DNA from: a virus
Direction: 5' to 3' (one strand)
Virus record (IMG/VR): IMGVR_UViG_3300045988_021923
Length of the DNA stretch: 42,154 nt
Below are positions 511-19,951 of this stretch, piece after piece (the stretch's first letter is position 1; the number at the start of each line of letters is the position of its first letter). The translations under genes and the position numbers were made by a program. Under the pieces are notes generated by a model, which searched no databases, was not told the origin of the DNA, and saw only the letters and a list, made by a program, of their open reading frames with translations.

Positions 511-2121
511 TTAAGCCTCCGAGAAAAATGCCGCATATCCATATTTTGTAGCTTGATTGCACATAGCCCCAACATAGGCTGCTCCGCCAATCGTCCATGT
601 TAAGGTTGCCTTTTGAGCATTAGCAGATACGGTGAGAGGTTTTGCGTCAAATATGTTATTAGCTTGATTATTTTGGTTTACTCCGTAGATTGCCATTTTT
701 GCTGATTGCGGGAAAAGTATGCAAAACCCTCCATCGTATGCGTTTTTCATTTCTTGGACCGGGAAAACGAACACAATCATAGGCTCTGCCTTAAAAACAA
801 GCGAGCGAGTAATATTAGTGCCATAATCTCCGGTGCCCGTATACGTCCCTGTCTCTATGCTTGCCGCCCCCGCAATTTGCTTTAAGGGGATATTGACCAT
901 ATTCCCAAGCACATCTACCAGCCCCGGCTCGTCTTTAAATGTGGTGTCGGGGGTGTAATAGGGGCTGATTGCGGACGGAGCACCTTGCGAATGGAAGCAG
1001 AAAACGCCGTTAATGTATGCCAGGCTCCCCTGCTGCGATGCCACGCCATCCGCAATGCGTTTAAAATTAAGTCCATCAAAGCTCACAAGAGACTCAAGGC
1101 CAAATTTAATGAGCACATTGACATCACTGCACGCAAGCTGCTCCACAATGGTTGTAACATTTGTTTCGCTCGATTGATAATTTGCGTCGGACAACTGCCA
1201 CTCTTTTAGGTCCTCGCTGTGCGCTATGCCATACGGGGTATACGCAAAATATTTTCCTTTAAATTTTACAAAAGCAACGTCGAAAAGTGTATTTGGCAGG
1301 TCCGCAGACGTAAAAACCGTTTCAAAACTATCAGATTTTAGCTTAATGACCTGAAATTTTTTGGAGACTTTGGCCGCAATATAGAAGCCATCGGGACCGT
1401 CAATGCCATTGTTAAAGCCTGACGCTGACGCTCCGAGATTGTATGTGTTTTCCCAATTTTCCGCATCACTGCTCAAATACACCTTGCCGGATATGTCGAT
1501 AAGGACAAATTTGCTCAGATAATTGCTGTAAAACAGGTTGTACGCAATGTTAGTTAGCGATAGCGTGCACTTTAAAGTCCATGTAGACAGATTTTGCGTA
1601 GCATAAATAATTGCCTTGTATGGGCTTGATGTAATGGGAATCAGGAGATAATATGTGTCACCCGCATACACAATTCTGTGTCTACCACCATAGTTATAAC
1701 CACCCGATACAGTTGGGATCGTAAATGTTGTCCATGTTTTTCCGTCCGTTGACATGACTGCGGTTGTGCCGCTGATTGGGAACGAAAAAAGGATGTTGTT
1801 TGCAACCGCAATTGCCTGCCACACGGACCCGCTGACGTTGGGCGCAGTACCCTTTTCCCAATTCTGCCCAGCGTACACATCTACAACCGGATAGGTGCCC
1901 TCCAATACGCTCTTGCTCAGCACATCCAGCACCTCATCCGGCACTGCTGTATTGTCCATGCCGTACTTTTCCGCCGTGGCGTCCTTCAAAAGCGTTACCT
2001 TGTTGAGCGGCGTCCCCTCCTGCGTGGGCTGGTCCGCCCGGGCCATATCAAAGGTGTTTTCCTGTCCGGCCACCGGGGTCAGCGTCACCCGCCCCGGGTA
2101 AAGTGGTACTCTGTCTTGCAT
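511..2121 (-). CDS. Tail fibre / receptor-binding protein (536 aa)
   Basis: Track ORF trimmed to ATG 2121 (GGAGA SD). The N-terminus MQDRVPLYPGRVTLTPV..NTFDMARAD..GTPLNKVTLL resembles the conserved anchor of Firmicutes prophage fibres. The AT-richer C-terminal ~450 aa has repeated Trp-containing beta-like segments. Confidence 0.7.
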   Translation of the reverse strand: MQDRVPLYPGRVTLTPVAGQENTFDMARADQPTQEGTPLNKVTLLKDATAEKYGMDNTAVPDEVLDVLSKSVLEGTYPVVDVYAGQNWEKGTAPNVSGSVWQAIAVANNILFSFPISGTTAVMSTDGKTWTTFTIPTVSGGYNYGGRHRIVYAGDTYYLLIPITSSPYKAIIYATQNLSTWTLKCTLSLTNIAYNLFYSNYLSKFVLIDISGKVYLSSDAENWENTYNLGASASGFNNGIDGPDGFYIAAKVSKKFQVIKLKSDSFETVFTSADLPNTLFDVAFVKFKGKYFAYTPYGIAHSEDLKEWQLSDANYQSSETNVTTIVEQLACSDVNVLIKFGLESLVSFDGLNFKRIADGVASQQGSLAYINGVFCFHSQGAPSAISPYYTPDTTFKDEPGLVDVLGNMVNIPLKQIAGAASIETGTYTGTGDYGTNITRSLVFKAEPMIVFVFPVQEMKNAYDGGFCILFPQSAKMAIYGVNQNNQANNIFDAKPLTVSANAQKATLTWTIGGAAYVGAMCNQATKYGYAAFFSEA

Positions 2122-2132
2122 ATTGTCTCCTT

Positions 2133-2525
2133 TCAGGTCTCTCCGGCGTAGAGGTCGCCGGAGAAAAACCACGCCTGCTCCATGTTGGTAATAAGGGTAT
2201 TAAGGTCCTGCAAAATGCGCTCAATGTCGTTGGCCTTGAGGTAATCTAAAAACCGCATGGTTTCCGGCGTCTTCGGCGTGGACGCCATCACGGCAATGAC
2301 TGCCCGCAGAATTGCAATGTTGCCCCGGTACGTCTCCATCTGGCTTGCAGTCGGCGTGTCCGATTCGGACCAGTCCGCCTTTGGGCTGACCTCCACGGCG
2401 TAGCCATAGCCGGTGAACCGCTCCGCCAGATACCGCACCGCCTCGCCCACCCGGTTCAGGTCGGAGGCGTTGTAAAACGTCCCCGGCCCCCGATTGGTAA
2501 TAAGTGTGGAAAAATCAAACGCCAT
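2133..2525 (-). CDS. Tail-fibre-module hypothetical protein (130 aa)
   Basis: Trimmed to ATG 2525 (MAFDFSTLITNRGPGTFYNASDLNRVGEAV). From recollection only, this family recurs next to fibre genes in Clostridia prophages. Confidence 0.6.
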   Translation of the reverse strand: MAFDFSTLITNRGPGTFYNASDLNRVGEAVRYLAERFTGYGYAVEVSPKADWSESDTPTASQMETYRGNIAILRAVIAVMASTPKTPETMRFLDYLKANDIERILQDLNTLITNMEQAWFFSGDLYAGET

Positions 2526-2553
2526 ACGCCCTCCCGTGTCCGAATCGGACCGC

Positions 2554-2838
2554 TCACTTGTCATAGTAGACCACCACGCACCCGTGGACGCCCATGCTGG
2601 GCGGCTCCGGGTCTCCGGGATAGTTGTCAACAACGTCTACTTCGACCTCCTCCCAGTAATAGCCGCCCTTATCGTCCCGGCGCTTCTTCCACTTTTTCTC
2701 CTTGTGCGTGTTGCCCTTCACGCCGCCGATGCCTCGGATGCCGCCGTTTCCGCTGCCGGGGATGGGGTTTTTCACGCCAGAGCGCCCAAAGCTGTCGCCG
2801 CTCCGCACGTCGGTATAGCCGTTGGTGTAGCGCGTCAT
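2554..2838 (-). CDS. Small Gly/Lys-rich tail-module protein (94 aa)
   Basis: ATG 2838 overlaps the upstream stop as ATGA. Trimmed from track ORF 2554..2943. Confidence 0.55.
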   Translation of the reverse strand: MTRYTNGYTDVRSGDSFGRSGVKNPIPGSGNGGIRGIGGVKGNTHKEKKWKKRRDDKGGYYWEEVEVDVVDNYPGDPEPPSMGVHGCVVVYYDK

Positions 2839-4295
2839 GATTTGACCTCCGCTTTGTAGACAACGGTGTTGGAAAGCGTGATGTCCATTTTGTTCAGGTT
2901 CCCGGTCAGCAGCGTTCCCCACGGGGTGTAAATGCTGACGCAATCGCCCAGCTTTTCACCGTCATAAACGATTTTTGCGGAGATTGCATCGCGGCGCTGG
3001 TAATAGTCATAGACGCGCTGCGCCGCCGCTTGCCCGATGTCTGTTGAAACCAACGTTGCGTCTTTAATTTCCTTGACATTAACCTTGTCCGTGGCGATAA
3101 CATCGGGATTGCTCACGGAGTACACCGTTTTAGTGTCGGTGTATTTCTGGCCGTTGATTTCCACGTCCCCGCTGCTGCTTGCGGCGTAAGTGTGCGCCAC
3201 AACGGAAACTTTGGTCACAACGGAAGATGTCTTGACGCTTGCGCCGGTAAATGTCCTGTCCTGCGGGATTGTCTCCGCAGCAGACGGAAGATTAAATACC
3301 CGGATAACCTCGCCACCGTCTGTGGCAAGACACACGCCCCATGCGAAAATGACGTGCTGTATGGCGGAGCGGCTTGTGCCGGACTGGATAACGCCCTTTA
3401 GCGTTGCGCCCGTTACACCGTCTGCATATTCCACCGTAAACGGCGCACAGAGCGTTTCCAGCAGCGTCTTTGCGCTGATGCCGGATAGATACGCACCGCC
3501 AGAAAATGGCGTATCATCCAGCACGCCTAAAGCGTCCTTGCAGTCGATTTTGTATACCCGGTCGCTCTTGCGGTCGCTACCGTCAATGTAGTACACGCCC
3601 AGCGTCTTACCGTTGTTCTGTACTTCTACCGGCTGTTTGAGCTGGAACAGGTAATCCACATCTTCCAAACTGTCCAATGTCCATTTGAATGTGGAAATCG
3701 GAAGCTCAATCGCGCCCTCGTTCATCTGGTTTGTAATGGACGCTGCCCGCAGCTCATTCATGCCAAACGTGCGTGTTACACCAAACACAATACGGTCCAG
3801 CTTTGCCCTGCGGAGCGGCACAGAGGTCTTTTCAATGGTCAGCACGATTTTGTCATAGCTTTCCACGCGTTTAGAGCAAAAATAGTTGACCGCGTTCGGC
3901 TGATATTCCTGCTCCGCTTTTAGCGTTGTCCCCTGATACCATTGCAATTTGACCTGAGAGCAATATTCGCCGGTCGATTCTTCACCGATGAGGCTGACGC
4001 CCATGCTGGAAAACTGTTTGGAAAATGTAATGGTAATGACCGGGTTCGCTGTAAACGTGCCATCTGCTCCGGAAATATCCGTTGACCAAAACGCAATCAC
4101 GCTTTCTTCCAAAAATCGGTCAAATGTCCCGTCCAACGCCCAGCGGTTATGTTCCAGCGTGATGATTTTGCCCGGTGATACGCCGGGAGGGAGCTTTTGC
4201 AGAACGCTTTCCGACATAGCGACGGTTGCCGCTACTGTGGCGTTTTCTTCAGCGCCTACCGCAACATCGCGGTAAATGACTTTTGTTTTTGCCAT
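2835..4295 (-). CDS. Tail tip / baseplate structural protein (486 aa)
   Basis: Long ORF directly after the tape measure and the Dit-position gene. Assigned by synteny; no enzymatic motif recognised. Confidence 0.6.
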   Translation of the reverse strand: MAKTKVIYRDVAVGAEENATVAATVAMSESVLQKLPPGVSPGKIITLEHNRWALDGTFDRFLEESVIAFWSTDISGADGTFTANPVITITFSKQFSSMGVSLIGEESTGEYCSQVKLQWYQGTTLKAEQEYQPNAVNYFCSKRVESYDKIVLTIEKTSVPLRRAKLDRIVFGVTRTFGMNELRAASITNQMNEGAIELPISTFKWTLDSLEDVDYLFQLKQPVEVQNNGKTLGVYYIDGSDRKSDRVYKIDCKDALGVLDDTPFSGGAYLSGISAKTLLETLCAPFTVEYADGVTGATLKGVIQSGTSRSAIQHVIFAWGVCLATDGGEVIRVFNLPSAAETIPQDRTFTGASVKTSSVVTKVSVVAHTYAASSSGDVEINGQKYTDTKTVYSVSNPDVIATDKVNVKEIKDATLVSTDIGQAAAQRVYDYYQRRDAISAKIVYDGEKLGDCVSIYTPWGTLLTGNLNKMDITLSNTVVYKAEVKS

Positions 4296-4303
4296 GCGTC
4301 ACC

Positions 4304-4699
4304 TCACGGCTTCACTTGCGCGTCCATGGGGATAAAATTCACTTCGATTTCGCCCCAATAATTCACACCATCTTCAGCCTTTTCGATGTCCTGCGAGGCG
4401 CTGGTGTAATACGCCTCATAGGAAATCGTGGTCTGTCCATCCGCCGCCTCCAACATTACGGAATCATCTACACTGTGCTGGAAAAGGTACTCCCAAAATT
4501 CATCCAGCCCTGCGTAGTTATCCCCCCGCCGAAACACTGTGATTTTATGACCGAGGTACGAGCCTATAACGTCTCGTACCATTCGCCCGGTCATCACACG
4601 CCCCGCATTTTCACCGTCAAGGACGTTAAAATAGCGGTTGTATTTGGAGATTGCCACATCGGCGTCAAATACCTTGCCATTCAGTTTAATGTAACTCAC
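4304..4699 (-). CDS. Distal-tail-position protein (131 aa)
   Basis: GTG 4699 with GGAGGTG SD, 1 nt after the tape-measure stop. Function assigned by position only. Confidence 0.5.
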   Translation of the reverse strand: MSYIKLNGKVFDADVAISKYNRYFNVLDGENAGRVMTGRMVRDVIGSYLGHKITVFRRGDNYAGLDEFWEYLFQHSVDDSVMLEAADGQTTISYEAYYTSASQDIEKAEDGVNYWGEIEVNFIPMDAQVKP

Positions 4700-4700
4700 A

Positions 4701-7250
4701 TTACACCTCCGCCAGATTGACGCCAATACGGTTGCTTTCGGACTTGTTCAGGCGGTACACAATGCGGCCCAGCGCCTCATCATCCAGCATCAATACAGCT
4801 TCACTCTGCCCGCCATAGCCACCCTCAGAGAGCGCCTGACGGAACGCCTGAACCATTGTGCTGAGAGGCGTCTCAATGTTCGTCCCCTGCTTTTGGTCTC
4901 CCAGCACCGCCAAGAACTCCCTGTTCGGGGGAATGACTGCGCCGGTAGCCAGCTTCGGCAGCGGGATTGTGGGAACATTGATGTGGCCTACATGGTGATA
5001 AAATGTCCCCGTCAGCTCCGCAAGGCTGTTTGCCGCGTCTACCAGCTCATTAAGCGCGTCAATCGCATTGTTCACGCCCTGCTGCAACGTGGTCAGGATA
5101 TTGTTCCACTTGATTGTGAACGTCCGTCCCATGAGAGACCAGAAATTCGTCCACAGCTCAGAAAACGTTGTGCGGAACTGCGAAAAGCCTAACAGGAAAT
5201 TTGTCTGCCATGTGTTGAACGAAACATCGAGGCTGTCAAGCAGCGTTTGGAACACCTGAAGCACAAGGCCCTGACTTTCGGTAATGCCGTTTGCCATGCC
5301 TTGCATGAGGTAATCGCCCATTTGCGCCGTTTCGGTGGAGGGGGAATGAATACCGAGAACATCTTTCAGCTTGTCAATGATGCCGGTTCCCCAATTCTGG
5401 ATAGTGTCTTTTGCTCTGCTTAGACCACCCAGAACAGAATTGCTCCACCAATTTTTAATCTGCTCCCAGCTTGTTTTCAGTGCATCAAGCATTGCGTTCC
5501 AGTTTGGCTTGATTGCAACGGCCAATCCGGCAGAACCGGCCAAAAGCAGGCCAAGGCCCAACGGAATACCGGCTCCGCTAAACAGCAGGATTGCACCAAG
5601 TACAAGCAGCGCAGAGCTTACAAACGCTGTCACAGCGCCAATAGGGCCGCGCATTAGCTCTTGTACGGTATTCCAGTTTGCCGCTACAGCCGTTGCAAGG
5701 CCGATTGCGCCGACAATTATCATACCGATACCAAGTCCAATGTTGGCCCCGGAAAACGTCAAGATTGCGCCAATCACAAGCAGTGCGCCGGATATTAGCG
5801 CGGTAATTGCTCCAATGGGGCCTTCCAACAGTGACTTAATTGTGTCCCAATTCGCCGCAATGGTTGCCGCCATGCCAAGCGCACCAACAACCATAAGGCC
5901 AAGGCCAAGGCCGATATTTGCGCCAGAAAACAGCAGGATTACGCCGATTTCAAGCAGCGCGACACTCAACAGCGCCGTTAATACGCCAAGCGGGCCTTGC
6001 AGCAGTGCCTTGATTGTGTCCCAATTTGCAGCGATTACAGTTGCTAACCCAATCGCACCGGCAATCATTAAACCCAAACCTACCGGGATATTGGCCCCGG
6101 AGAAGACAAGCAGTGCACCGATGACAAGCAGCGCCCCCGATACAAGCGCAACAACCGCGCCTAACGAGCCTTGCAATAGCTCTTTGATTGCTTCCCAATT
6201 TGTAGTAACTGCGCCCCAAATTGCCAATGCGCCCAGCGCCATTAAGCCAATGCCAAGCGGGATATTAACGCCGGAAAACGTCAGGATTGCGCCCAGCGCC
6301 AAAAGCGCCGCACCGGCAAACAGCGAAACAATCGCGCTGAGTTGGTCATTGATGCTTGACGCAAAATTGGGAGCTGCTGACCCTGCGCCCCCGGAATTAT
6401 CGCCGGAGATTTTATTGATTTCATCAAACGATGCAAGGGACTTGCTTGCCTTTTTAGCCGCTCCGCCCACACCTTTTAATGCGTTTTGCTCGTCATATAG
6501 ATTTTCGGCGGCTTGTGCGCTTTCTTCAACTGTTGTGCCGAAAATCATAGATACAAGCTGAGATACAGCATTAACTACGCGGGTAATCACGTTGACCAAC
6601 AGCGTAAATGCTGGTATAATCAATTTTAGAATAGGCTGTGCAAGTGTCCGCAGCGCCCCTTTGAGCTTTGCAATGGAGGCCATTGCTTCATCATTGGTCT
6701 GGATTGCGCTCCAAACATAATCTTTCAGGGACCGCAGCGCCTTTGTGATTAAAGTAAACACAAACACGCGCCGCGCAAGGCCCTTAATGCGGTTAATGAA
6801 TTTTTGTATGCGCTTATCCGCTTCTTCAGCCGCATCAGACATATTATTTGTTTCTTCTGTTGCGCCCGCTAATTGTGCGGACAAATCTCCCGCTCTATCG
6901 CTCATTCGTTCAAGGTTTCGGGTATCTTTGGCAATGGACGCGTCCATGGTCTCAACCTTTTTTTGCACACCGTCCCATTCCTTTTGTAATGATGCTACAG
7001 TCTGCTCCTGCTCTTTTAATGCGGCAGATGAAACAAATTCGTTGCCGCTTTGCATTTCTGCGAGCTTTGCTTTTGCGGCGTCAAGGTTTGCGGCAAGCTG
7101 CTTTGACTGTTCCACCAGCGGCATTCTCTGCTGTTTCTTGTCGCTGATTTTATCGTTAAGCGTATCGATTTTTTTAGTCAGCCGGTTTAATTCAGTTTGG
7201 GCCTCTTTATCGTCGATTTCGGCTTTAATAATAAGAGAGCCATCCGCCAT
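4701..7250 (-). CDS. Tape measure protein (849 aa)
   Basis: Longest ORF in the window. It has an N-terminal coiled coil and central hydrophobic Gly-rich repeats, and lies between the chaperone genes and the distal tail genes. Confidence 0.9.
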   Translation of the reverse strand: MADGSLIIKAEIDDKEAQTELNRLTKKIDTLNDKISDKKQQRMPLVEQSKQLAANLDAAKAKLAEMQSGNEFVSSAALKEQEQTVASLQKEWDGVQKKVETMDASIAKDTRNLERMSDRAGDLSAQLAGATEETNNMSDAAEEADKRIQKFINRIKGLARRVFVFTLITKALRSLKDYVWSAIQTNDEAMASIAKLKGALRTLAQPILKLIIPAFTLLVNVITRVVNAVSQLVSMIFGTTVEESAQAAENLYDEQNALKGVGGAAKKASKSLASFDEINKISGDNSGGAGSAAPNFASSINDQLSAIVSLFAGAALLALGAILTFSGVNIPLGIGLMALGALAIWGAVTTNWEAIKELLQGSLGAVVALVSGALLVIGALLVFSGANIPVGLGLMIAGAIGLATVIAANWDTIKALLQGPLGVLTALLSVALLEIGVILLFSGANIGLGLGLMVVGALGMAATIAANWDTIKSLLEGPIGAITALISGALLVIGAILTFSGANIGLGIGMIIVGAIGLATAVAANWNTVQELMRGPIGAVTAFVSSALLVLGAILLFSGAGIPLGLGLLLAGSAGLAVAIKPNWNAMLDALKTSWEQIKNWWSNSVLGGLSRAKDTIQNWGTGIIDKLKDVLGIHSPSTETAQMGDYLMQGMANGITESQGLVLQVFQTLLDSLDVSFNTWQTNFLLGFSQFRTTFSELWTNFWSLMGRTFTIKWNNILTTLQQGVNNAIDALNELVDAANSLAELTGTFYHHVGHINVPTIPLPKLATGAVIPPNREFLAVLGDQKQGTNIETPLSTMVQAFRQALSEGGYGGQSEAVLMLDDEALGRIVYRLNKSESNRIGVNLAEV
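5481..6338. repeat. Five tandem 174-bp (58-aa) repeats inside the tape measure gene
   Basis: NW(D/E/N)xxx anchors at aa 351, 409, 467, 525 and 583. Each unit contains two hydrophobic helices of the type GALLVIGAILxFSGANIxLGxG. Confidence 0.8.
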
Positions 7251-12934: not shown

Positions 12935-13069
12935 CTAATTCTGCTTTTTTATGTCTTTCGCTTCAATAATTTGTGCCTTTACATTTCCGTCTTTCATCTG
13001 CTTTAGCTGTACCCGGCAACCGGCAGAGAGGGCCTTTTCGATTGCGGCTTTTAGCTTGTCATCAATCAT
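12935..13069 (-). CDS. Small hypothetical protein (44 aa)
   Basis: Not in the track. ATG 13069 overlaps the upstream stop by 8 nt. Sequence MIDDKLKAAIEKALSAGCRVQLKQMKDGNVKAQIIEAKDIKKQN. Confidence 0.4.
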   Translation of the reverse strand: MIDDKLKAAIEKALSAGCRVQLKQMKDGNVKAQIIEAKDIKKQN

Positions 13070-14267
13070 ACTGAACCTTTGTCCTTTCCTGTTGTTCCGG
13101 CAAACCAGCGGCCTTGCTAAATGCCTTGTATTTAGCGTTCAGGCGGCGCAATTTGGCGTTTGCTGTGATACGTGCATCTTCTTGCCCGCTTGCTTTGTAT
13201 GCCTTTACAAGCCGTTTCTGCTTGATAATTTGGCGTTCTACACGGCGCTGCATCTGAGTGGCCTCGTATGCCGTGTATGTCTTTCCGTCAAACGTACAGC
13301 CCAGTCCATCATCAATATGAGCAAGCTGTTCTTCCGTGTATGTCGGCTCCATAACATCTTCCACAAACGGAGCCCATGTGTGCCGGCAGTTTGCACCTAA
13401 AATACCCTGCACATCGCCAATGCCGCACGATTTTTCAAAGTCCGGGTATTCTTTCTTTGAGGCATTGGGATATTTCTTTGTAAACTCCGCCCAGCGATAA
13501 ATTTTACCTTGAAATTTCTTGTGGTTTTCAAACCCTTTCGGCCCGTCAATGTCTCGTGCGCCCGCGTGAGCCGAAACTAAAACGAGGTCAGTTTGCAAAA
13601 AGTCCATTGACTGGCGGGAATATTCACGGTTGAGCTGGTTTACCCCCGTCATCACGGCCCTGCGAACGGCTGTATCAATGTTGCTGCGCGCTCCGCTTTC
13701 GTAATCGACTACCTTTATCCCGCTCTCTGCAAGCTGTCTAACAGCGTTTGCTATGGCCTGATTGTAGTTGATTGCGCCGCTCTCAATCTGCATGACAGCG
13801 TTATCTAAAGCCCACTGATAAGCTTTAGCGGGAGGAAGCATTGTCTGCCCAGCGTCCACCAGAAAGCCCATAGAAGCGGTTAAATTGTGCAGCGTATCAA
13901 GTGTCTGCGCCTTAATTGCCGCTATTGTAGCTGCGTCTACCAGCGTTTCCGGCTGCGTAACGTGGGCAAGGTCAATAACCTCTGTGTAATACTTCTGGTT
14001 ACGCTCCACCACATCATCAAGCAGTTTATTTAGCTTTTGTTTGCTAATTCCCGTGGTTTTGCTAATAACCTTTGTTATTTCTGTTAGGTAAATGCTATGT
14101 GACCGCAGCGCCCGGATGTCTTGCACCGTTACTTCGTTCAGCTCATCCCGCAGTTTAAGCCGGGAACATATCTCCGTTAGCAGGGTATCTTCAAGACCGC
14201 GAAACAACTCAGCCAACTCTTCGGGGAGCGCATCCAGTAGTTCAGGAGTAAAAGGATACTTTTTCAT
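13062..14267 (-). CDS. Minor capsid / head-morphogenesis protein (SPP1 gp7 / MuF-position; 401 aa)
   Basis: ATG 14267 overlaps the upstream stop as ATGA. Large conserved protein in the portal-proximal slot. No toxin domain recognised at the C-terminus. Confidence 0.75.
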   Translation of the reverse strand: MKKYPFTPELLDALPEELAELFRGLEDTLLTEICSRLKLRDELNEVTVQDIRALRSHSIYLTEITKVISKTTGISKQKLNKLLDDVVERNQKYYTEVIDLAHVTQPETLVDAATIAAIKAQTLDTLHNLTASMGFLVDAGQTMLPPAKAYQWALDNAVMQIESGAINYNQAIANAVRQLAESGIKVVDYESGARSNIDTAVRRAVMTGVNQLNREYSRQSMDFLQTDLVLVSAHAGARDIDGPKGFENHKKFQGKIYRWAEFTKKYPNASKKEYPDFEKSCGIGDVQGILGANCRHTWAPFVEDVMEPTYTEEQLAHIDDGLGCTFDGKTYTAYEATQMQRRVERQIIKQKRLVKAYKASGQEDARITANAKLRRLNAKYKAFSKAAGLPEQQERTKVQYD

Positions 14268-14812
14268 GCCTTTTTCTTTTTCCACTTGAAGGAATACTTA
14301 ACGCCAGCGGCCTTTGCAAACTTAGCGTATGCGTTATTTGTCGCTTCCGTTTGTGCCCTTCTGCTTGCCTCTTTAGCTTCCTGCACGCTTTTATACTTTC
14401 CCGCTTTATAATCGGCCGACACCTTATTTGCTGCTTCTCTTACCTCACGGCGCACGGCGTTGTGATTATATGCAAGCGTTTCATAGTATCCTTTGTTGTG
14501 AGGCCCTGATAATGTAAACGTTGCATCACGACTTTCAATTATGATTGCTTTTGCCCCTGATTTTTGCCACGTTTCAATATCTTTCAGGGACGGGACAGGG
14601 AGAACTCCCTCCGGGTGATTGTGTAAAACGATGTTCCCTTTATAGTCGGCATCTCCATATCCTGTATGTTGAGCTGTCCCTTGTTCTTTATAGAGCAAAT
14701 CACCCGATGGAGAAAAAACGAAAAGCTGTTCTTTTTTTAGATTGGCAATTTTTGATCGGGTGGCATTTATTGATGCAAAGCCAAAGCTCCCGCTTCCGCC
14801 CCTTCCGCCCAT
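14264..14812 (-). CDS. JAB/MPN (RadC-like) domain protein with N-terminal MGGRGGSGS tag (182 aa)
   Basis: GGAGGA SD 7 nt upstream. LHNHPEGVLPVPSLKDIE resembles the RadC/JAMM motif HNHPSGxxxPSxxD with one extra residue. The start overlaps the DUF4417 gene by 46 nt. Confidence 0.6.
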   Translation of the reverse strand: MGGRGGSGSFGFASINATRSKIANLKKEQLFVFSPSGDLLYKEQGTAQHTGYGDADYKGNIVLHNHPEGVLPVPSLKDIETWQKSGAKAIIIESRDATFTLSGPHNKGYYETLAYNHNAVRREVREAANKVSADYKAGKYKSVQEAKEASRRAQTEATNNAYAKFAKAAGVKYSFKWKKKKA

Positions 14813-15429
14813 TTAGCCTTCCTCCGTTTCACAATATCGTCATAATGTGGTTTTACCCTAATTACGTTCCAGTCGCATTCTTCCGGCACTTTGCCGTAAA
14901 ATATCACCCATTCCGGCGATAGCCGTTTCATCATTTCTTCGTAGCCGCGCAGAAAAAGGCGCTTGCTTTCCTTGTTTTTCTGTGTGCCTACTGAACTGAC
15001 AGCCACCACCCCGCCGACAGGCTCGCCGTCAAAGCACCAATCATAGCTATTCTCGTTGCTCCATGAGATCGTCGGATAAACCGTCATGCCGTGAAGCTGC
15101 CAGTATGCGGCCATCCAGTGCTTGCGGTAATGGTTGTATATCTGCATGGCCATCGGCATATCCGTGTAGGTGGAGAAGTCCGGCGCGCAAACCGCCGCAA
15201 ACTGCGACAGTTGCGGAATGTACTTGTCAGGCGTGTTCCAATACCGGATGAATTGATAATCGTCCACGAAGAAATGCACGATCTTGCTTTTCGTGTCTTT
15301 CGCGGTGTAATGGTAATTTATGGGGATAAACTCACCTTGTGGGTATGCCTTGACCGGCTCGATCTGCGGAATGTCGTACTTTCCAACTCCGGGGAATGTG
15401 AACTTGTCGAGATTTTCAAAGTTAATCAT
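14767..15429 (-). CDS. DUF4417-family protein (220 aa)
   Basis: Trimmed to ATG 15429 (MINFENLDKFTF...VHFFVDDYQFIRYW...PDFSTYTDMPMAMQIYNHYRKHW...WCFDGEP), which matches my recollection of DUF4417. Confidence 0.7.
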   Translation of the reverse strand: MINFENLDKFTFPGVGKYDIPQIEPVKAYPQGEFIPINYHYTAKDTKSKIVHFFVDDYQFIRYWNTPDKYIPQLSQFAAVCAPDFSTYTDMPMAMQIYNHYRKHWMAAYWQLHGMTVYPTISWSNENSYDWCFDGEPVGGVVAVSSVGTQKNKESKRLFLRGYEEMMKRLSPEWVIFYGKVPEECDWNVIRVKPHYDDIVKRRKAKWAEGAEAGALALHQ

Positions 15430-15440
15430 AAATCCCCCAG

Positions 15441-15482
15441 CAAACAAAAATGCCGCAAGATACATTTCTGTACCTTACGGCA
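15441..15482 (-). terminator. Candidate - strand rho-independent terminator inside the head module
   Basis: The - strand RNA folds UGCCGUAAG...CUUGCGGCA (9 bp including one G-U; the same position is a C-A mismatch on + strand RNA), followed by AUUUUUGUUUG. It ends 12 nt before the DUF4417 start. Confidence 0.55.
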
Positions 15483-15542
15483 TAGCAAGCGCCCGGAATC
15501 AAACCGGAACTTCCTCAAACAAAGTGTGCTGCCATTACACCA

Positions 15543-15935
15543 CTACTTGCTACGCCGATTGTACCATATTTTTTTGACTCGCTCAACCATTTTCTTTTCG
15601 GTTGGCGTTAGATTCGCGTATCCCTTTGCACCGTCGTTTTCATTGTGTATATATCCGTGGTGGGTATGCGGGGAAACTTTATCATGCGGCCTGTCAATAT
15701 CTATTTGTTTTATGCGCTTGTTCTTAGTGTCGTAGTATGTAATTGCTTTGATGTTATCGCTTTTGTTGAGCGTTACATACACGCGACCACTTGTCATTGT
15801 CTCCATTGGCGTTTTCTGCGCACCGTCAACCGCCTTGACAAACTTGATATTACTCTCTTTGATAATCGTCTTGAACTCGCTACCGTAAGGCTTGCCCTTT
15901 ACGCTCATACCGCTGCTTGCGCCGCGTCCACCCAT
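15543..15935 (-). CDS. Hypothetical protein with N-terminal MGGRGASSG tag (130 aa)
   Basis: GGAGAG SD 7 nt upstream. His-rich segment PHDKVSPHTHHGYIH. Confidence 0.7.
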   Translation of the reverse strand: MGGRGASSGMSVKGKPYGSEFKTIIKESNIKFVKAVDGAQKTPMETMTSGRVYVTLNKSDNIKAITYYDTKNKRIKQIDIDRPHDKVSPHTHHGYIHNENDGAKGYANLTPTEKKMVERVKKIWYNRRSK

Positions 15936-15950
15936 GAATTATCTCTCCAT

Positions 15951-16394
15951 TTACATCCATTGTCCGCCGCGCCTCTTTGCTTTTGCATTTCCTGCCGACG
16001 CTTGCCGTTTGTACCTTTCGTACTCTGCTCGTGCGCCTTCCATAGCAGTAACCGCCCGTTCCTGCAAAGAAATTTTCTCGCGCAATGCGGCTTTCATGCC
16101 ATCAATGGACGCTTGAGACATACCGTAAGACTTTCCCATTTGGTTTGCCTCTCGCAAATCGCGTTTTAGTGCATCGATGTCTTTGCGAGTATCCGCAATC
16201 AGACTTCTTCCGGTAACATCTTGGTGGACATACATCTGATAGCCGGTTGTCTCTTTGGTCGCGCCGCTTTCAATAGCAAACGCAGCTTCAAAGCTACGGG
16301 CGTTCTCCATTTCGATATTGTATGAGTTTTTGTAATCGGGAGAAGATGCGTTTCGACTCCCAATGCCGCCACCGGTTCCACCTCTGCCGCCCAT
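15951..16394 (-). CDS. Hypothetical protein with N-terminal MGGRGGTGGG tag (147 aa)
   Basis: Trimmed from track ORF 15951..16481 to ATG 16394, which overlaps the portal stop as TAATG and has an AGGAGG SD 7 nt upstream. Confidence 0.65.
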   Translation of the reverse strand: MGGRGGTGGGIGSRNASSPDYKNSYNIEMENARSFEAAFAIESGATKETTGYQMYVHQDVTGRSLIADTRKDIDALKRDLREANQMGKSYGMSQASIDGMKAALREKISLQERAVTAMEGARAEYERYKRQASAGNAKAKRRGGQWM

Positions 16395-17824
16395 TACTCC
16401 ACCTCCTGTTGCTGTTCCGTTACCATGTCCTGCATCTTTGGCAGCGCCGCCTTTGCAGTCTCCTCGTCCTCGTTCATCCATTTGGCTCTAAATTCCCAAT
16501 CGTTCATAATACCCGCTTGCAAAAGCTGCATATCGCGGGAAAAGTCAGTCGCTTTATCTTCGATGATGCTATCATCAAAATCAATGCTGATTTCTACGTT
16601 TTCATCCAGCCCGGCATTCATTGCGGTATTGCCAAGCCGCAGAAGAATCCGGCAAAGCTCTGTTAGCGCCTGCTCTAAAACCGCTTCATGCTTTTTGATG
16701 GTACGGAACATGGTGCTGTTTTCGCTGATTACCTGCGTCGCCGTTGCCACGCTTCCACCATCAAAGCGGTAATAGGTTTCGCCAAATCCACACTTGCTGG
16801 AAAGGATATTAAGCTGGTCCTGAATGCCGGTGTTGTGCTCCGCTGTCCGCAACGTCATATCAATCGGCGTTATAACAGCTCCGTCCGATACATCTTCCGG
16901 CAGCACGTAAAATGCCACATCGCCGGGGTCAAACACAGGTTGTCCGTCAAGATACTTTGCCGCAGACGGTTTTACCATAATGCGCTTTTTGCCGAGCTTA
17001 AACTCATTGACATAGCTATCGTATGCAATGTCTACGCCCTGCAATACGTCAATAGCGTTGGCATATACGGAAATGCCAGTTGGCAGCAAGTAATCGTAGT
17101 TATTGGCAATATTCAGCCGGTCAATCACAAACTGCCGCTTGTCGCTGCCGGTATGCACAACAGGCGGAATGCGCTCAAAGCCTTTAACATTGGTCAAGGT
17201 TTCATCCGCAAGCTGCTCATTGTCATACCGATAAATGCGGTTTTCAATGATGTATTCGCCGCTATCCTCTTTATGGTGAATTTGCAAGTACAAATAATCA
17301 TGCCCACTCCGCGTCACTACAGACGAAAAAGCGCACTCGCTGATATAACCGTTCTGCCATGCCAGCGGGTAAATGTTTTCAATCGTTACATAGTCCAGCA
17401 CAATACCGGAGGCGTTTCCGGGGACGATTTCGCCGCTTTCGTTGACTTCTTGCCCCACAACACGGGGGATATACGCCACTGTGCCAAGAGCAGACTTCAT
17501 TTCCTGCATCTCATTTGCCTTGACGGTAAAATTGTTTTCCGCCAAAACACGGTCAATAAACGCCTGCTCGTTCTGCCCCTCCAGCGTGATTTGAACTTTC
17601 TCGTTCATAAGCAGGTTAGCCCAATCCTCGCACAGCTTTTTCCCCATGCCAAGGGAATAACGCTTGCAGTTGACCATACTTTCGCCGTTGCGAACGCGGT
17701 AATTGTGAAACCCTTTAACGTTCCCTTGATACCAGCTTTTCCACTCCGCAACCTTGCTGTAAAACGCTTCGGGGATTGTAGCATAGCCCAACTGATTTAA
17801 CTTTTGAATGATTGCGTTGCTCAT
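16394..17824 (-). CDS. Portal protein, SPP1 gp6-like (476 aa)
   Basis: Size fits. Position is directly after the large terminase (ATGA overlap). The portal-family N-terminal region is present. Confidence 0.9.
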   Translation of the reverse strand: MSNAIIQKLNQLGYATIPEAFYSKVAEWKSWYQGNVKGFHNYRVRNGESMVNCKRYSLGMGKKLCEDWANLLMNEKVQITLEGQNEQAFIDRVLAENNFTVKANEMQEMKSALGTVAYIPRVVGQEVNESGEIVPGNASGIVLDYVTIENIYPLAWQNGYISECAFSSVVTRSGHDYLYLQIHHKEDSGEYIIENRIYRYDNEQLADETLTNVKGFERIPPVVHTGSDKRQFVIDRLNIANNYDYLLPTGISVYANAIDVLQGVDIAYDSYVNEFKLGKKRIMVKPSAAKYLDGQPVFDPGDVAFYVLPEDVSDGAVITPIDMTLRTAEHNTGIQDQLNILSSKCGFGETYYRFDGGSVATATQVISENSTMFRTIKKHEAVLEQALTELCRILLRLGNTAMNAGLDENVEISIDFDDSIIEDKATDFSRDMQLLQAGIMNDWEFRAKWMNEDEETAKAALPKMQDMVTEQQQEVE

Positions 17825-19059
17825 GCGATAACTCCCATCCGGCGGGAAATACGCTCCAAAGCGTACCTTGTGGCATCAATCAAATGGTTATTTGCGTCAG
17901 GATAGCCGCTTATGATGTCCCCGTCTTTGTTTCGCTCGTATTCGTAATTTACAAATTCGTTATATGCGTTTGGCGTTCGCTTGCGGTCAATAACGATTTT
18001 CCGCCGCTGCAACCACTTCATCCCGTAGTCAACGGAACCGGGGCCTTTAACGGCCTCTTTTGCTGGCAACCCCATTGCGCGGTAATCTGCTGTGCTTTTT
18101 GGCTCCGCACTGTCACAAGTGATATATGCGTCCATATAATTGCGACTTTTAATCATACTTCCGCTTGCTTCGTTTGTGAGTTTGTTTTGATATATTTCGT
18201 CAATCAAAAAAATCGTTTCGCGTGCGCTGTCATAATGCAGCCGGATAAAAGCAAAGGGGTCAGGATACCAGCCCCAGTCAACACCCTGATAAATGCGGTC
18301 AAAATGCGAAATTTCATTGTCAGTGATTTCCCGCAATTCGAGGTTTTCAAACACATTGCCGCCAGTTCCGACCGGAATGCCAAGATATTCATGCTGATAC
18401 GCCCGTTCATCCGTCTTTTTGAGATATTCGGCCTCATCAAGAAACTGCTGCCCCAGCCATTCAGGCGGTGCTTGCAGATACGTTGATTTGTGGCACAGAC
18501 GGTCAGCGCGTTCCTCCAAACTGTCTTTGTTGGCCCAATTATCGCGGCTGATCGGCGGGTTATAGCTTTCAAAGTTCCAGTATTTCGAGCCGCCGCGCAT
18601 GGTGGACTGCAAGATAGTACGTATCTCCGCCCGACCCGCAAACTGGTCTTTTTCCTCAAAGTGTGTTACGGCGATATAGCCAAACGGCACTTTGATAGAT
18701 TTTATCTTCATGGGGTCATCAGCGCCCCGAAACATAATCTTTTGCCCGGTAGGCTTGTATATCAGCTCCATAGGGGAAACTTTCGCTTCCCAAAATGCAG
18801 CCATACCTAATTCGCCAATGGCCCACATATATTGCGCGTACACACTGTCACGGATTGTATTTGCCACCTTACGCAGCACCAGCGCATGAGTGCCGGGATT
18901 GCGGATTAACAGCAGCGGCACAATGATTGACACAAACGAGGATTTGAGGGACCCACGCCCCCCGCTTTCATCGTAATGTGTATGGCCATGTTGAAAAACG
19001 TCCCGCGCTACGTCATAAAACGCAGGGCCTATCTTTTCTGACAGACGGATTTCAGACAT
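17821..19059 (-). CDS. terL: Terminase large subunit, PBSX/Terminase_3-type (412 aa)
   Basis: Walker-A-like YDESGGRGSLKSS and a nuclease C-terminal half. ATG 19059 overlaps the terS stop; the track start at 19062 is a TTG codon. Confidence 0.9.
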   Translation of the reverse strand: MSEIRLSEKIGPAFYDVARDVFQHGHTHYDESGGRGSLKSSFVSIIVPLLLIRNPGTHALVLRKVANTIRDSVYAQYMWAIGELGMAAFWEAKVSPMELIYKPTGQKIMFRGADDPMKIKSIKVPFGYIAVTHFEEKDQFAGRAEIRTILQSTMRGGSKYWNFESYNPPISRDNWANKDSLEERADRLCHKSTYLQAPPEWLGQQFLDEAEYLKKTDERAYQHEYLGIPVGTGGNVFENLELREITDNEISHFDRIYQGVDWGWYPDPFAFIRLHYDSARETIFLIDEIYQNKLTNEASGSMIKSRNYMDAYITCDSAEPKSTADYRAMGLPAKEAVKGPGSVDYGMKWLQRRKIVIDRKRTPNAYNEFVNYEYERNKDGDIISGYPDANNHLIDATRYALERISRRMGVIA

Positions 19060-19462
19060 CAATAACTATCTTTACGGGGTCAGCGCTGATTTTTGTCTCA
19101 CTTACTTCACGCCAGCCAAAATTACAACCGAGAGAAAATTTAGCTCCGTTTGCGCCGTCTTTATCGTAGAGCCGAGATTCGGCGTATTCTTCGCATCTGG
19201 ACTTTGCGCGCGTAACCGTGTCATTAAATTCTGGTCTGTCTTGATAATTGATTAGCGCTTGTCGGCTTGCAAATCCCAAGGCCAGCGCAAGCCCTGTTAC
19301 CGTAGGCGGCTTTTCGTCTAAAATAATCGGCCTTCCATATTTATCTGTGGCAACATCGCCATCAATGACAAGCGGCGTTCCTTTGCAACTTTCAAAGTAA
19401 GCGTCAATGGCTTTTTGCATTGCCTTTGCGCTTTTCCATTTTCTTGGCGCTCCGATAGCCAT
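19052..19462 (-). CDS. terS: Terminase small subunit (136 aa)
   Basis: Lies immediately upstream of terL. KPPTVTGLALALGFASRQALINY is an HTH-like segment typical of small terminases. Confidence 0.7.
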   Translation of the reverse strand: MAIGAPRKWKSAKAMQKAIDAYFESCKGTPLVIDGDVATDKYGRPIILDEKPPTVTGLALALGFASRQALINYQDRPEFNDTVTRAKSRCEEYAESRLYDKDGANGAKFSLGCNFGWREVSETKISADPVKIVIDV

Positions 19463-19498: not shown

Positions 19499-19951
19499 TT
19501 ACTCCACGATCATCCAGTCATCAGCCAGCATATCCGCCTGCGATGCCAGCCAGCCGAGCTGCACGCCGGATGTGCCGACAAACGCAAGCGCTTTGTTGCC
19601 GATAGCTTCGTGATTGGCGTTGACCACCTCGTGCGCAGCATTCTCATAACTGATGCGCTCCGCAAGCTCGACATACTGGTTCTTGCCATTCCAACCACGA
19701 CGGCCAATTCTCTCCCCTTTCTTCGCCGCTTCAATGGCAAGGCCAAAGCTCAGGCAGTCTGTTTCCCGATATGCGGCCTCAAACACATCCTTTGGGCTAA
19801 AGCTCTCGTAGCCGTCCGCGTAGCGGACCTTATAGCCCTCATCCACGGGGTCCATGCTTTTGGGAACGGGCTGGTCCTTCTCGTAGACCTTGCCACCCTT
19901 GCGAATAGCAGGGACTGCTTCAATGATTTTCGTGCCAATATACTTTTTCAT
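19499..19951 (-). CDS. DUF2829-domain protein (Tad2-like candidate), 150 aa
   Basis: LSFGLAIEAAKKGERIGRRGWNGKNQYV...GWLASQADMLADDWMIVE matches the DUF2829 signature. AGGAGG SD. Confidence 0.7.
   Translation of the reverse strand: MKKYIGTKIIEAVPAIRKGGKVYEKDQPVPKSMDPVDEGYKVRYADGYESFSPKDVFEAAYRETDCLSFGLAIEAAKKGERIGRRGWNGKNQYVELAERISYENAAHEVVNANHEAIGNKALAFVGTSGVQLGWLASQADMLADDWMIVE

Follow-up and report, generated by a model that had tools for sequence, protein, structure and literature searches.

A conserved N-terminal MGGRG peptide on unrelated small phage proteins, and its linkage to DUF4417 in the packaging region

The head module of a temperate siphophage, recovered as IMG/VR record IMGVR_UViG_3300045988_021923, contains three small genes whose products share an N-terminal MGGRG peptide (the tag), together with an untagged gene for the domain of unknown function (DUF) DUF4417. 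The window is the whole stretch of DNA that was analysed, 42,154 nucleotides (nt) long, and coordinates refer to it throughout. In a family scan the window encodes a serine recombinase, a holin, Terminase_3, SSB, Sak and a Tad2-like gene, among others, and the nearest genomic relative found for the phage is an uncultured Ruminococcaceae contig (L125). The minus-strand order is terminase small subunit (TerS, 19052-19462), terminase large subunit (TerL, 17821-19062), portal (16394-17824), genes for proteins of 147 and 130 amino acids (aa), DUF4417, a gene for a 182-aa protein, Phage_min_cap2 (13062-14267), scaffold and major capsid protein. Matches to Terminase_3, Terminase_3C and GP3_package cover the TerS/TerL pair, and the portal gene matches Pfam SPP1_portal (E=3.9e-17) and phrog_533 (E=1.3e-116). 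The MuF-like minor capsid gene (Pfam, E=3.9e-80) has no toxin extension. As the original prediction held, four genes are wedged between the portal gene (17824-16394) and the minor capsid gene (14267-13062).

Three of the four, all co-oriented on the minus strand, open with ATG and the tag. The 147-aa open reading frame (ORF; 15951-16394, start MGGRGGTGGGIG) begins with MGGRGGTGG, its ATG overlapping the portal stop codon (TAATG), and its first ten codons, MGGRGGTGGG, span 16365-16394. The 130-aa gene (15543-15935) begins with MGGRGASSG and continues as MGGRGASSGMS; its tag, MGGRGASSGM (15906-15935), fits the consensus given below exactly. The 182-aa ORF (14264-14812, start MGGRGGSGSFGF) begins with MGGRGGSGS, and its tag, MGGRGGSGSF, lies at 14783-14812. 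These assignments come from the sequence and from matches to the degenerate pattern ATGGGNGGNMGNGG, which occurs three times in the 42-kb window, each time at a tagged start, against an expectation of 0.12; none of 100 shuffles reached three. Each tagged gene has a GGAG-type Shine-Dalgarno (SD) sequence 8-9 nt upstream, and the tag Arg is encoded by AGA, CGC and AGG in the 147-, 130- and 182-aa genes, respectively. Beyond the tag the three proteins show no mutual similarity and belong to separate BLAST families (T12, T1 and T3). The near-identical starts, the separate SD sequences, the differing Arg codons and the unrelated bodies had all been claimed in the original prediction, and all hold.

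The bodies of the tagged proteins are sparsely annotated. The 147-aa protein matches no Pfam, PHROG or NCBIfam family, and the 130-aa protein, which contains a His-rich PHTHHGYIH motif, belongs to phrog_9479 (E=6.1e-51). No NCBIfam model matches the tag or the tagged proteins, and searches of Pfam and PHROG gave no match to a MuF or min_cap2 domain within any of the three. The 182-aa protein had been described as JAB-like. It does carry a JAB/RadC-like HNHPEG...PS..D motif, but its matches to RadC and Cap3 (E ~0.06-0.08) lie below the cut-offs and it has no Pfam match. The spacing also departs from the JAMM signature, as HNHPEGVLPVPSLKD has eight residues from the second His to the Ser where E...HxHx7Sx2D needs seven. 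Weak similarity links the protein both to a JAB-like tagged protein (E=2e-4) and, at E=6e-4, to the region that extends a Dorea phage MuF protein at its C-terminus; one of its homologues is named DUF2466 in one source. Sequence searches against solved structures gave no meaningful match for DUF4417, the 130- and 182-aa proteins or a 256-aa tagged family.

The fourth gene encodes the 221-aa DUF4417 protein (14767-15432, minus strand; Pfam PF14386, E=4.9e-59). Its true start is the ATG at 15432 (MINFENL), which matches homologues, and its 3' end is overlapped in a different reading frame by the start of the 182-aa gene. The original prediction took this gene as merely the fourth member of the group; it proved to be the constant neighbour of the tag. 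When viral contigs were scanned with the pattern SD-ATG-GGN-GGN-MGN-GGN..., at least 119 stretches were found, compared with 50 in the whole collection for a scrambled pattern of the same composition (M-G-R-G-G). DUF4417 is present at 89 of the 119 tag loci and at none of the 50 scrambled-control loci (Fisher p=3.5e-22). The 30 tag loci that lack it are mostly pattern matches off ORF starts, or tags at contig ends. At control loci, none of 1037 ORFs of at least 80 aa starts with MGGRG. The same linkage is seen from the other side, at loci chosen by DUF4417 homology only. Among the best 80 of 584 confirmed matches in species-representative genomes (mostly Clostridia, nearly all 51-62% identical to the query), 65 carry, on the same strand and no more than 2.5 kb away, an ORF that starts ATG-MGGRG. 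The number rises to 72 of 80, with one to four tagged genes each, once GTG, TTG and ATT starts and the variants MGGRS, MGRGNSGL and MAKGSSGF are allowed, and 60 tagged ORFs at these loci begin no more than 200 nt downstream of the DUF4417 match.

The position of the cassette relative to the packaging genes varies between lineages. DUF4417, one to four tagged genes, TerS, TerL and portal is the dominant order at DUF4417 loci, and it is also the order in the phages A25, DO134P1 and Jekyll. In the lineage of the window the order is instead TerL, portal, one to three tagged genes with DUF4417, and MuF, and the first post-portal gene is swapped among at least ten families. The slot between portal and minor capsid genes is specific to this lineage, and the association of the tag is with DUF4417 and the packaging region generally, not with the portal/MuF junction. 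The tie to that junction proposed in the original prediction was not borne out, most prophages carrying the cassette just upstream of TerS/TerL; a junction-specific signal is ruled out by its position upstream of TerS in A25, the Dorea and Roseburia phages and most prophages. A tagged gene is usually followed by another tagged gene, DUF4417, TerS or MuF; no search aimed at immunity genes was made.

The wider class was sampled in about 200 related loci, with tagged proteins of 85-300 aa. Tagged ORFs of at least 80 aa from all loci, compared by BLAST after removal of their first 12 residues, fall into 43 families, or 38 after probable chance families are dropped, a count that may shrink under profile or structure comparison. 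The tag consensus is M-G-G-R-G-[GSA]-x-[SG]-G-[LIMF], and weighting by family gives M-G-G-R-G-[G.69/S.20/A.10]-[S/A/N]-[S.53/G.38]-[G.68]-[L/I/F/G]. Residues 11-40 are rich in G, S, P, Q, A and T (0.48 vs 0.34 further on), a composition that fits a flexible linker after the tag. Across the 38 families MGGRG is encoded by 68 different 15-nt sequences, and the tag is also retained after GTG, TTG and ATT starts, which bears out the proposal that selection acts on the peptide. A recent DNA duplication or a recombination box is ruled out by the 68 encodings and by the differing codons of the three window copies; chance or low complexity is ruled out by the shuffle test, the scrambled-pattern control and the absence of MGGRG starts among the control ORFs.

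Synonymous sites within the tag are nevertheless biased, with GGG, AGG and CGG avoided and AGA favoured: AGA makes up 70% of tag Arg codons vs 25% elsewhere, and GGG 3% of tag Gly codons vs 20% elsewhere. The bias points to an extra constraint on the initiation region, not to conservation at the DNA level. It is also what can be said for reading the shared start as a G-rich feature of the mRNA or of translation initiation, or as a low-complexity coincidence, with no function of the peptide. Such a reading is scarcely credible and has been largely refuted already, given the many encodings of MGGRG, the excess of matches in the window, the lack of any link between the scrambled control and DUF4417, and the persistence of the motif away from the start codon, behind a Prp leader or a 75-aa domain (see below).

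Homologues retain the tag while the rest of the protein diverges. Among homologues of the 147-aa protein, 79 of 91 clusters start with MGGRG at body identities down to 49%, the others being truncated gene calls or having VGGRG, MSGRG or MGGCG starts. All six clusters of 182-aa homologues start with MGGRG. The 130-aa family, phrog_9479, is the most widespread tagged family, and its relatives occur in 30 phage records, among them those of Streptococcus phage A25, Dorea phage DO134P1 and Roseburia phage Jekyll, every one with both MGGRG and a DUF4417 neighbour. The suggestion that homologues might lack the motif fails because MGGRG is kept in the homologues of all three window proteins. Variant tags, identified by eye and by regular expression, also occur beside DUF4417, namely MAKGSSGF, MGKGSSGK, MGRGNSGL and MGGRSAKSG (L204 4663-5719; L263 4028-5614; L156 1302-2033; L139 3308-4975).

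Two further loci with related starts were noted separately. In L062 (11258-11515) MGGRGGAGGG runs straight into the C-terminal third of DUF4417 (GGVVAVSSVGTQ) within an 85-aa ORF, apparently through loss of what lay between the Gly-rich tag and the GGVVAV stretch. The unrelated viral contig L057 lacks DUF4417, and of six genes called there in a row (2107-6176) five open with MGG (MGGVASV, MGGAKSA, MGGFHKT, MGGLMGG and MGGRGGGG); this series may represent a different shared N-terminal feature.

Some indication of how the N-terminus is presented comes from genes in which the motif does not follow the start codon directly. The initiator Met is removed most readily when Gly comes next, and its removal here would leave GGRG. 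At five loci (Jekyll, L132, L143, L144 and L186) MV(I/V/M)NLQ(F/Y)F stands immediately before GGRG in the ORF after DUF4417. The Prp motif of ribosomal protein L27 is MLxx(D/N)LQ(F/L)F'A, cut after FF (PMC9405229), and the host protease Prp likewise cuts the phage 80alpha capsid and scaffold proteins (PMC5744158). Because a Prp-type leader directly precedes GGRG at these five loci, a free GGRG N-terminus seems, on sequence grounds, to be what matters. The three window genes contain no Prp leader motif xxNLQ(F/L)F, and no (L/I)xE site after the tag. At seven other loci (L136, L145, L166, L177, L192, L200 and L265) a conserved N-terminal domain of ~75 aa (FKHEFKRLNG..LFR.PLELY..) lies directly before an internal GGRGxxSG[LIM], which is followed by a JAB-like or HExxH domain. 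This domain has no Pfam family, and in L263 (4585-5614) it is a separate ORF overlapping the tagged ORF, a split that may reflect a frameshift.

The Prp leader also suggests, in these five relatives, engagement of host N-terminal processing machinery, and the Lys-bearing variants MAKGSSGF and MGKGSSGK, minus Met, loosely resemble the mature N-terminus of L27 (AHKK/ASKK). Both observations could be taken to mean that the tag is a localisation or stability signal that the host reads, through a secretion route, the membrane, the ribosome or a protease, with DUF4417 no more than a syntenic neighbour in a mobile 'moron' islet. This is highly doubtful. Synteny alone would not hold more than 38 families beside DUF4417 in phages of Firmicutes and Actinobacteria and at two genome positions, nor would it produce in-frame DUF4417 fusions, and the tag has no hydrophobic or signal-peptide character. 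Such fusions take two forms. P0240 continues in frame from DUF4417 into MGGRGSGGG, then a linker and a cargo domain, and the next gene is tagged too; P0094 is a second tag-like fusion of DUF4417 to cargo. In P0258 and P0269 DUF4417 is fused directly to the effector, without a tag.

What the tagged proteins may do is suggested by a minority with recognisable domains. Few have a Pfam match, among them Gln_amidase, a papain-fold polymorphic toxin domain (1e-15), and DUF6883 (3.3e-19), placed within a classification of BECR-fold ribonucleases (bioRxiv 10.64898/2026.08.28.747851); tagged proteins of mycobacteriophages match ADPrib_exo_Tox and DUF3626. Others contain HExxH or HNHP(S/E)G...S..D motifs. 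Domains of the polymorphic-toxin type are found in the tagged class as a whole, the three window proteins contributing only the JAB-like motif. A conserved N-terminal tag joined to 38-43 alternative families is an architecture of the polymorphic-toxin type. The same domains recur as C-terminal cargo of MuF proteins: DUF6883 occupies residues 402-496 of a Phage_Mu_F protein (L019) and also occurs as a tagged stand-alone protein (L130), and the JAB-like tagged protein that the 182-aa protein resembles matches the same Dorea phage MuF extension, at E=1e-5. In related phages (L099, L087, L092, L016 and L072) the min_cap2 orthologues end in CdiA_C, PBECR2/3, Ntox50 or unassigned domains, and the lineage of the window uses MuF fusions and tagged stand-alone proteins side by side, from an overlapping domain pool. 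This sharing of domains between tagged proteins and MuF C-terminal cargo favours the idea that the tagged proteins are virion cargo. GGRG was also looked for as a linker within long MuF-toxin proteins, and none was found.

DUF4417 is widespread and phage-specific. It forms 3065 clusters at 50% identity (E <=1e-3) and occurs in 505 phage records, of which 385 are from Mycobacterium, 57 from Streptococcus and 39 from Gordonia. It is found in just 5 of 72,556 plasmids, and this near-absence rules out a conjugative-element origin. A 43.9-kb 'plasmid' of Enterocloster bolteae (L265; NZ_CP022465.2) carries DUF4417, a GGRG-bearing JAB-like gene, an ADP-ribosyltransferase gene and a tyrosine recombinase, and may be a phage-plasmid rather than a plain plasmid.

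Besides Clostridia prophages, the pair of DUF4417 and tag occurs in phages of Streptococcus (A25 among them), Mycobacterium and Gordonia. The gp1 of mycobacteriophage L5 is DUF4417, and an MGGRGSKGG ORF begins at the 3' end of gp1, upstream of the annotated gp2; it overlaps the end of gp1 in a frame that differs from that of gp2 (L258, about 1078-2084), which suggests a frameshift or sequencing error. In Georgie2, gp2 is DUF4417 and gp3 starts with MGKRGGSGGGGG (MGKRGGSGG), followed by a Gly-rich linker of ~80 residues and a C-terminal ADPrib_exo_Tox domain (E=1.8e-20; L256 1336-2271). DyoEdafos has a GTG-GGRGGGG ORF after DUF4417, and the GC-rich viral contigs L042 and L056 have DUF4417 with two or three tagged paralogues. 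The annotated start of A25 gp23 (L001 5001-5411) lies 27 nt too far downstream of that of the ORF, which opens with MGGRGASSGMSD (MGGRGASSG). In Javan115 (L205) the annotated coding sequence is part of the ORF only, and its DUF4417 carries the label 'DNA modification methylase'. Annotated starts of tagged genes appear misplaced in reference genomes (A25 gp23, L5 gp2, Javan115 and Georgie2 gp3).

These observations directly support a tag conserved at the peptide level on at least 38 families, linked to DUF4417, set in a late, packaging context and borne by proteins with toxin-type domains, some of them shared with MuF proteins. The explanation that we give about an even chance of being right is a two-part system for loading or delivering polymorphic phage effectors, in which DUF4417 would recognise an exposed GGRG and the effectors would travel with the packaged genome. 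One component would be DUF4417, a conserved enzyme-like α/β-barrel protein. The other would be one to four exchangeable small effectors sharing only (M)GGRG-[GSA]-x-[SG]-G-[LIMF], usually followed by a flexible Gly/Ser/Pro/Gln-rich linker. The effectors would be produced late, alongside head and packaging proteins. Removal of the initiator Met would expose a free GGRG N-terminus, or in some relatives removal of a Prp-type leader or of the 75-aa pro-domain would do so instead. DUF4417 would then recognise the GGRG peptide, by binding or by chemical action, and the effectors would thereby be routed into the virion or onto DNA undergoing packaging, to enter the next host with the genome in a role equivalent to that of a MuF-toxin fusion. 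Tag recognition by DUF4417, N-terminal processing, and packaging and ejection of the tagged proteins are what we infer from these data.

The predicted structure of DUF4417 bears on how recognition might work. AlphaFold2 gives an α/β barrel-like model with a predicted local distance difference test (pLDDT) of 85.5, rising to 95-98 for the domain with a deeper, diverse alignment; DUF4417 is predicted to be an enzyme-like α/β barrel. Its invariant residues H53, D58, D85, S87, Q97, T121, S125 and C133 lie near predicted strand ends. Foldseek found no significant match in the PDB, the best being an EAL domain (5.9e-3) and the tRNA-guanine transglycosylase (TGT) of Z. mobilis (0.03-0.1). In a viral model library the first non-homologous matches are phage 'queuine tRNA-ribosyltransferases' (E=3.7e-3 to 3e-2, TM 0.39-0.54), which account for at least eight of the top 18 fold matches. 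DUF4417 has no sequence or profile match in the PDB that would relate it to TGT, and a TGT/DpdA-like barrel is a weak lead from model comparison, not an assignment.

If the lead were followed, DUF4417 could act as a TGT/DpdA-like transglycosylase on phage DNA, with the tag amine or the Arg guanidinium as nucleophile, and effectors would be covalently tethered to the packaged and injected genome. N-terminal amines do act as nucleophiles at deoxyribose C1' in Fpg/Nei, T4 endonuclease V and HMCES, and three routes (Met removal, Prp-type cleavage and pro-domain removal) would all yield a free GGRG N-terminus. Fusions of ParB_N, a DNA-clamp domain, to DUF4417 are common among DUF4417 proteins, and the window contains no 7-deazaguanine synthesis genes to supply a base substrate. 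We nonetheless consider DNA tethering decidedly unlikely: beyond the weak fold match and missing sequence similarity, DUF4417, at ~200 aa, has no TGT zinc subdomain, any folded protein carried on the DNA would need to get through the terminase and portal, and the direct tag-less fusions need no such chemistry.

The same invariant H, D, S, T and C residues at predicted strand ends would also suit an enzyme that trims the tag or alters it chemically, perhaps at its invariant Arg or N-terminal Gly. As a pro-toxin control, DUF4417 would then hold toxic effectors inactive in the producing cell, or activate them there, and the proteins would work late in the infected cell with no packaging involved. 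A tag that is near-invariant across phyla fits recognition of a substrate by an enzyme, and many carriers are toxin domains that need restraint in the producing cell. This alternative is fairly unlikely, as it leaves unexplained the position of the cassette among packaging and head genes, the alternation of the same domains with MuF fusions and the direct fusions of DUF4417 to cargo without a tag, and DUF4417 matched no known protein-modifying enzyme fold.

Several points weigh against loading or delivery through DUF4417. The open-access literature yielded no experimental or proteomic record of a tagged protein or of DUF4417 in a virion. The AlphaFold2 model of the DUF4417::tag::cargo fusion P0240 leaves the tag disordered (pLDDT <50, residues 212-228) and predicts no docking. 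Eight of the 80 DUF4417 loci have no recognisable tagged gene, and at the seven loci with the 75-aa domain the motif is internal, cleavage there being assumed. The invariant polar residues, the barrel-like fold and the ParB_N fusions look more like a nucleic-acid enzyme than a passive adaptor. DUF4417 is often fused to ParB (bioRxiv 2025.10.10.680097); one such locus (L263) has MGKGSSGK-type neighbours, and the neighbour gene at another (L261) is untagged. Sampling is also skewed, with one gut metagenome and one phage lineage dominating the viral scan, the genome scan covering the best 80 of 584 matches and gene calling being crude (longest ORF).

As an idea, marking polymorphic effectors for packaging has been seen before: the T4 capsid targeting sequence, the MuF toxins and P1 Dar are precedents. 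The open-access literature was found to describe neither the tag nor its association with DUF4417, 'MGGRG' appearing in no phage paper; DUF4417 is mentioned there as an unknown domain, often ParB-fused, and nothing relevant was found on capsid targeting or mycobacteriophage ADP-ribosyltransferases. Polyvalent and MuF-borne effectors were described by Iyer et al. (2017; PMC5512222), and the passages of that paper found by term contain no such tag, nor did a search for DUF4417 bring the paper up. Like the tagged class, MuF-type polymorphic toxins combine variable effector domains with a place among the head-morphogenesis genes and are believed to travel in the capsid and to be injected, and the two have families in common (DUF6883/BECR, JAB-like and ADP-ribosyltransferase). 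Unlike MuF-type toxins, the tagged effectors are separate, small proteins without a MuF domain, which share a 10-residue peptide and a partner gene, DUF4417.

The capsid targeting sequence of T4 (IPI-III, Alt) is likewise a short N-terminal peptide on unrelated packaged and injected proteins and is transferable in principle (PMC9026906). In T4 the peptide attaches to the scaffolding core, and the prohead protease cuts it off at (L/I)xE, whereas no prohead protease family was found in the head module or elsewhere in the window by Pfam, PHROG and family scans. The two peptides are also unrelated in sequence, and the T4 peptide has no counterpart to the separate conserved partner DUF4417. In phage P1, the loading of DarB and Ulx into the capsid depends on Hdf and DarA, and packaging of DarB also requires its own N-terminus. 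This accessory-dependent loading of effectors is alike in concept, but there is no relation in sequence or fold and the Dar proteins have no common short tag. DarA and DarB serve as query exemplars in the passages of PMC5512222 found by term.

For the Prp-processed leaders of L27 and of the 80alpha capsid and scaffold proteins, the likeness lies in MVxNLQFF before GGRG in the five relatives, and known phage substrates of Prp are virion-assembly proteins. Unlike those substrates, the window genes are leaderless and would rely on Met removal, and in the relatives the residue after the cut would be Gly, not Ala. TGT/DpdA share with DUF4417 a weakly similar predicted barrel and a phage-borne occurrence, and the ParB_N fusions suggest a link to DNA; DUF4417 differs in having half the size, no zinc subdomain and no sequence similarity, and in occurring in a window without deazaguanine synthesis genes.

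If loading or delivery through the tag and DUF4417 proves correct, it would provide temperate phages of Firmicutes and Actinobacteria with a second general route, beside MuF fusion, for carrying polymorphic toxins and anti-defence enzymes into new hosts, and would give a common DUF a role. The sequence rule (M)GGRGxxSG beside DUF4417 could be used to find injected effectors, so far uncharacterised, by the hundred in phages of the gut, of streptococci and of mycobacteria, and the mis-set start codons of A25 gp23, L5 gp2 and Javan115 would be corrected. The 10-residue tag could be used for loading foreign proteins into phage particles. Should the link be covalent or enzymatic, new biochemistry would be involved; DNA tethering, if real, would mean a new mode of viral protein delivery and a new enzymatic protein-DNA ligation. 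The hypothesis is testable, since the DUF4417-tag pair occurs in tractable phages, namely L5-type phages (M. smegmatis) and A25 (S. pyogenes).

Two further features of the window lie close to the cassette or to its alternative slot. The 110-nt gap between the 130-aa gene and DUF4417 contains a 15-bp hairpin followed by a T-run (15450-15483, minus strand), which may be a terminator, an attenuator or a relic of a mosaic junction; the number of hairpin and T-run sites in the region shows no excess over chance. An in-frame ATG further upstream (15465), which relatives have kept (MYLAAFLFAGGFMINFENL), overlaps the hairpin. Directly upstream of TerS, in the slot that the DUF4417-tag cassette takes in most other phages, lies a 150-aa ORF (19499-19951, minus strand). 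This is probably the window protein that matches a Tad2-like, Thoeris anti-defence family (E=2.8e-19; the member matched is not specified by the scan).

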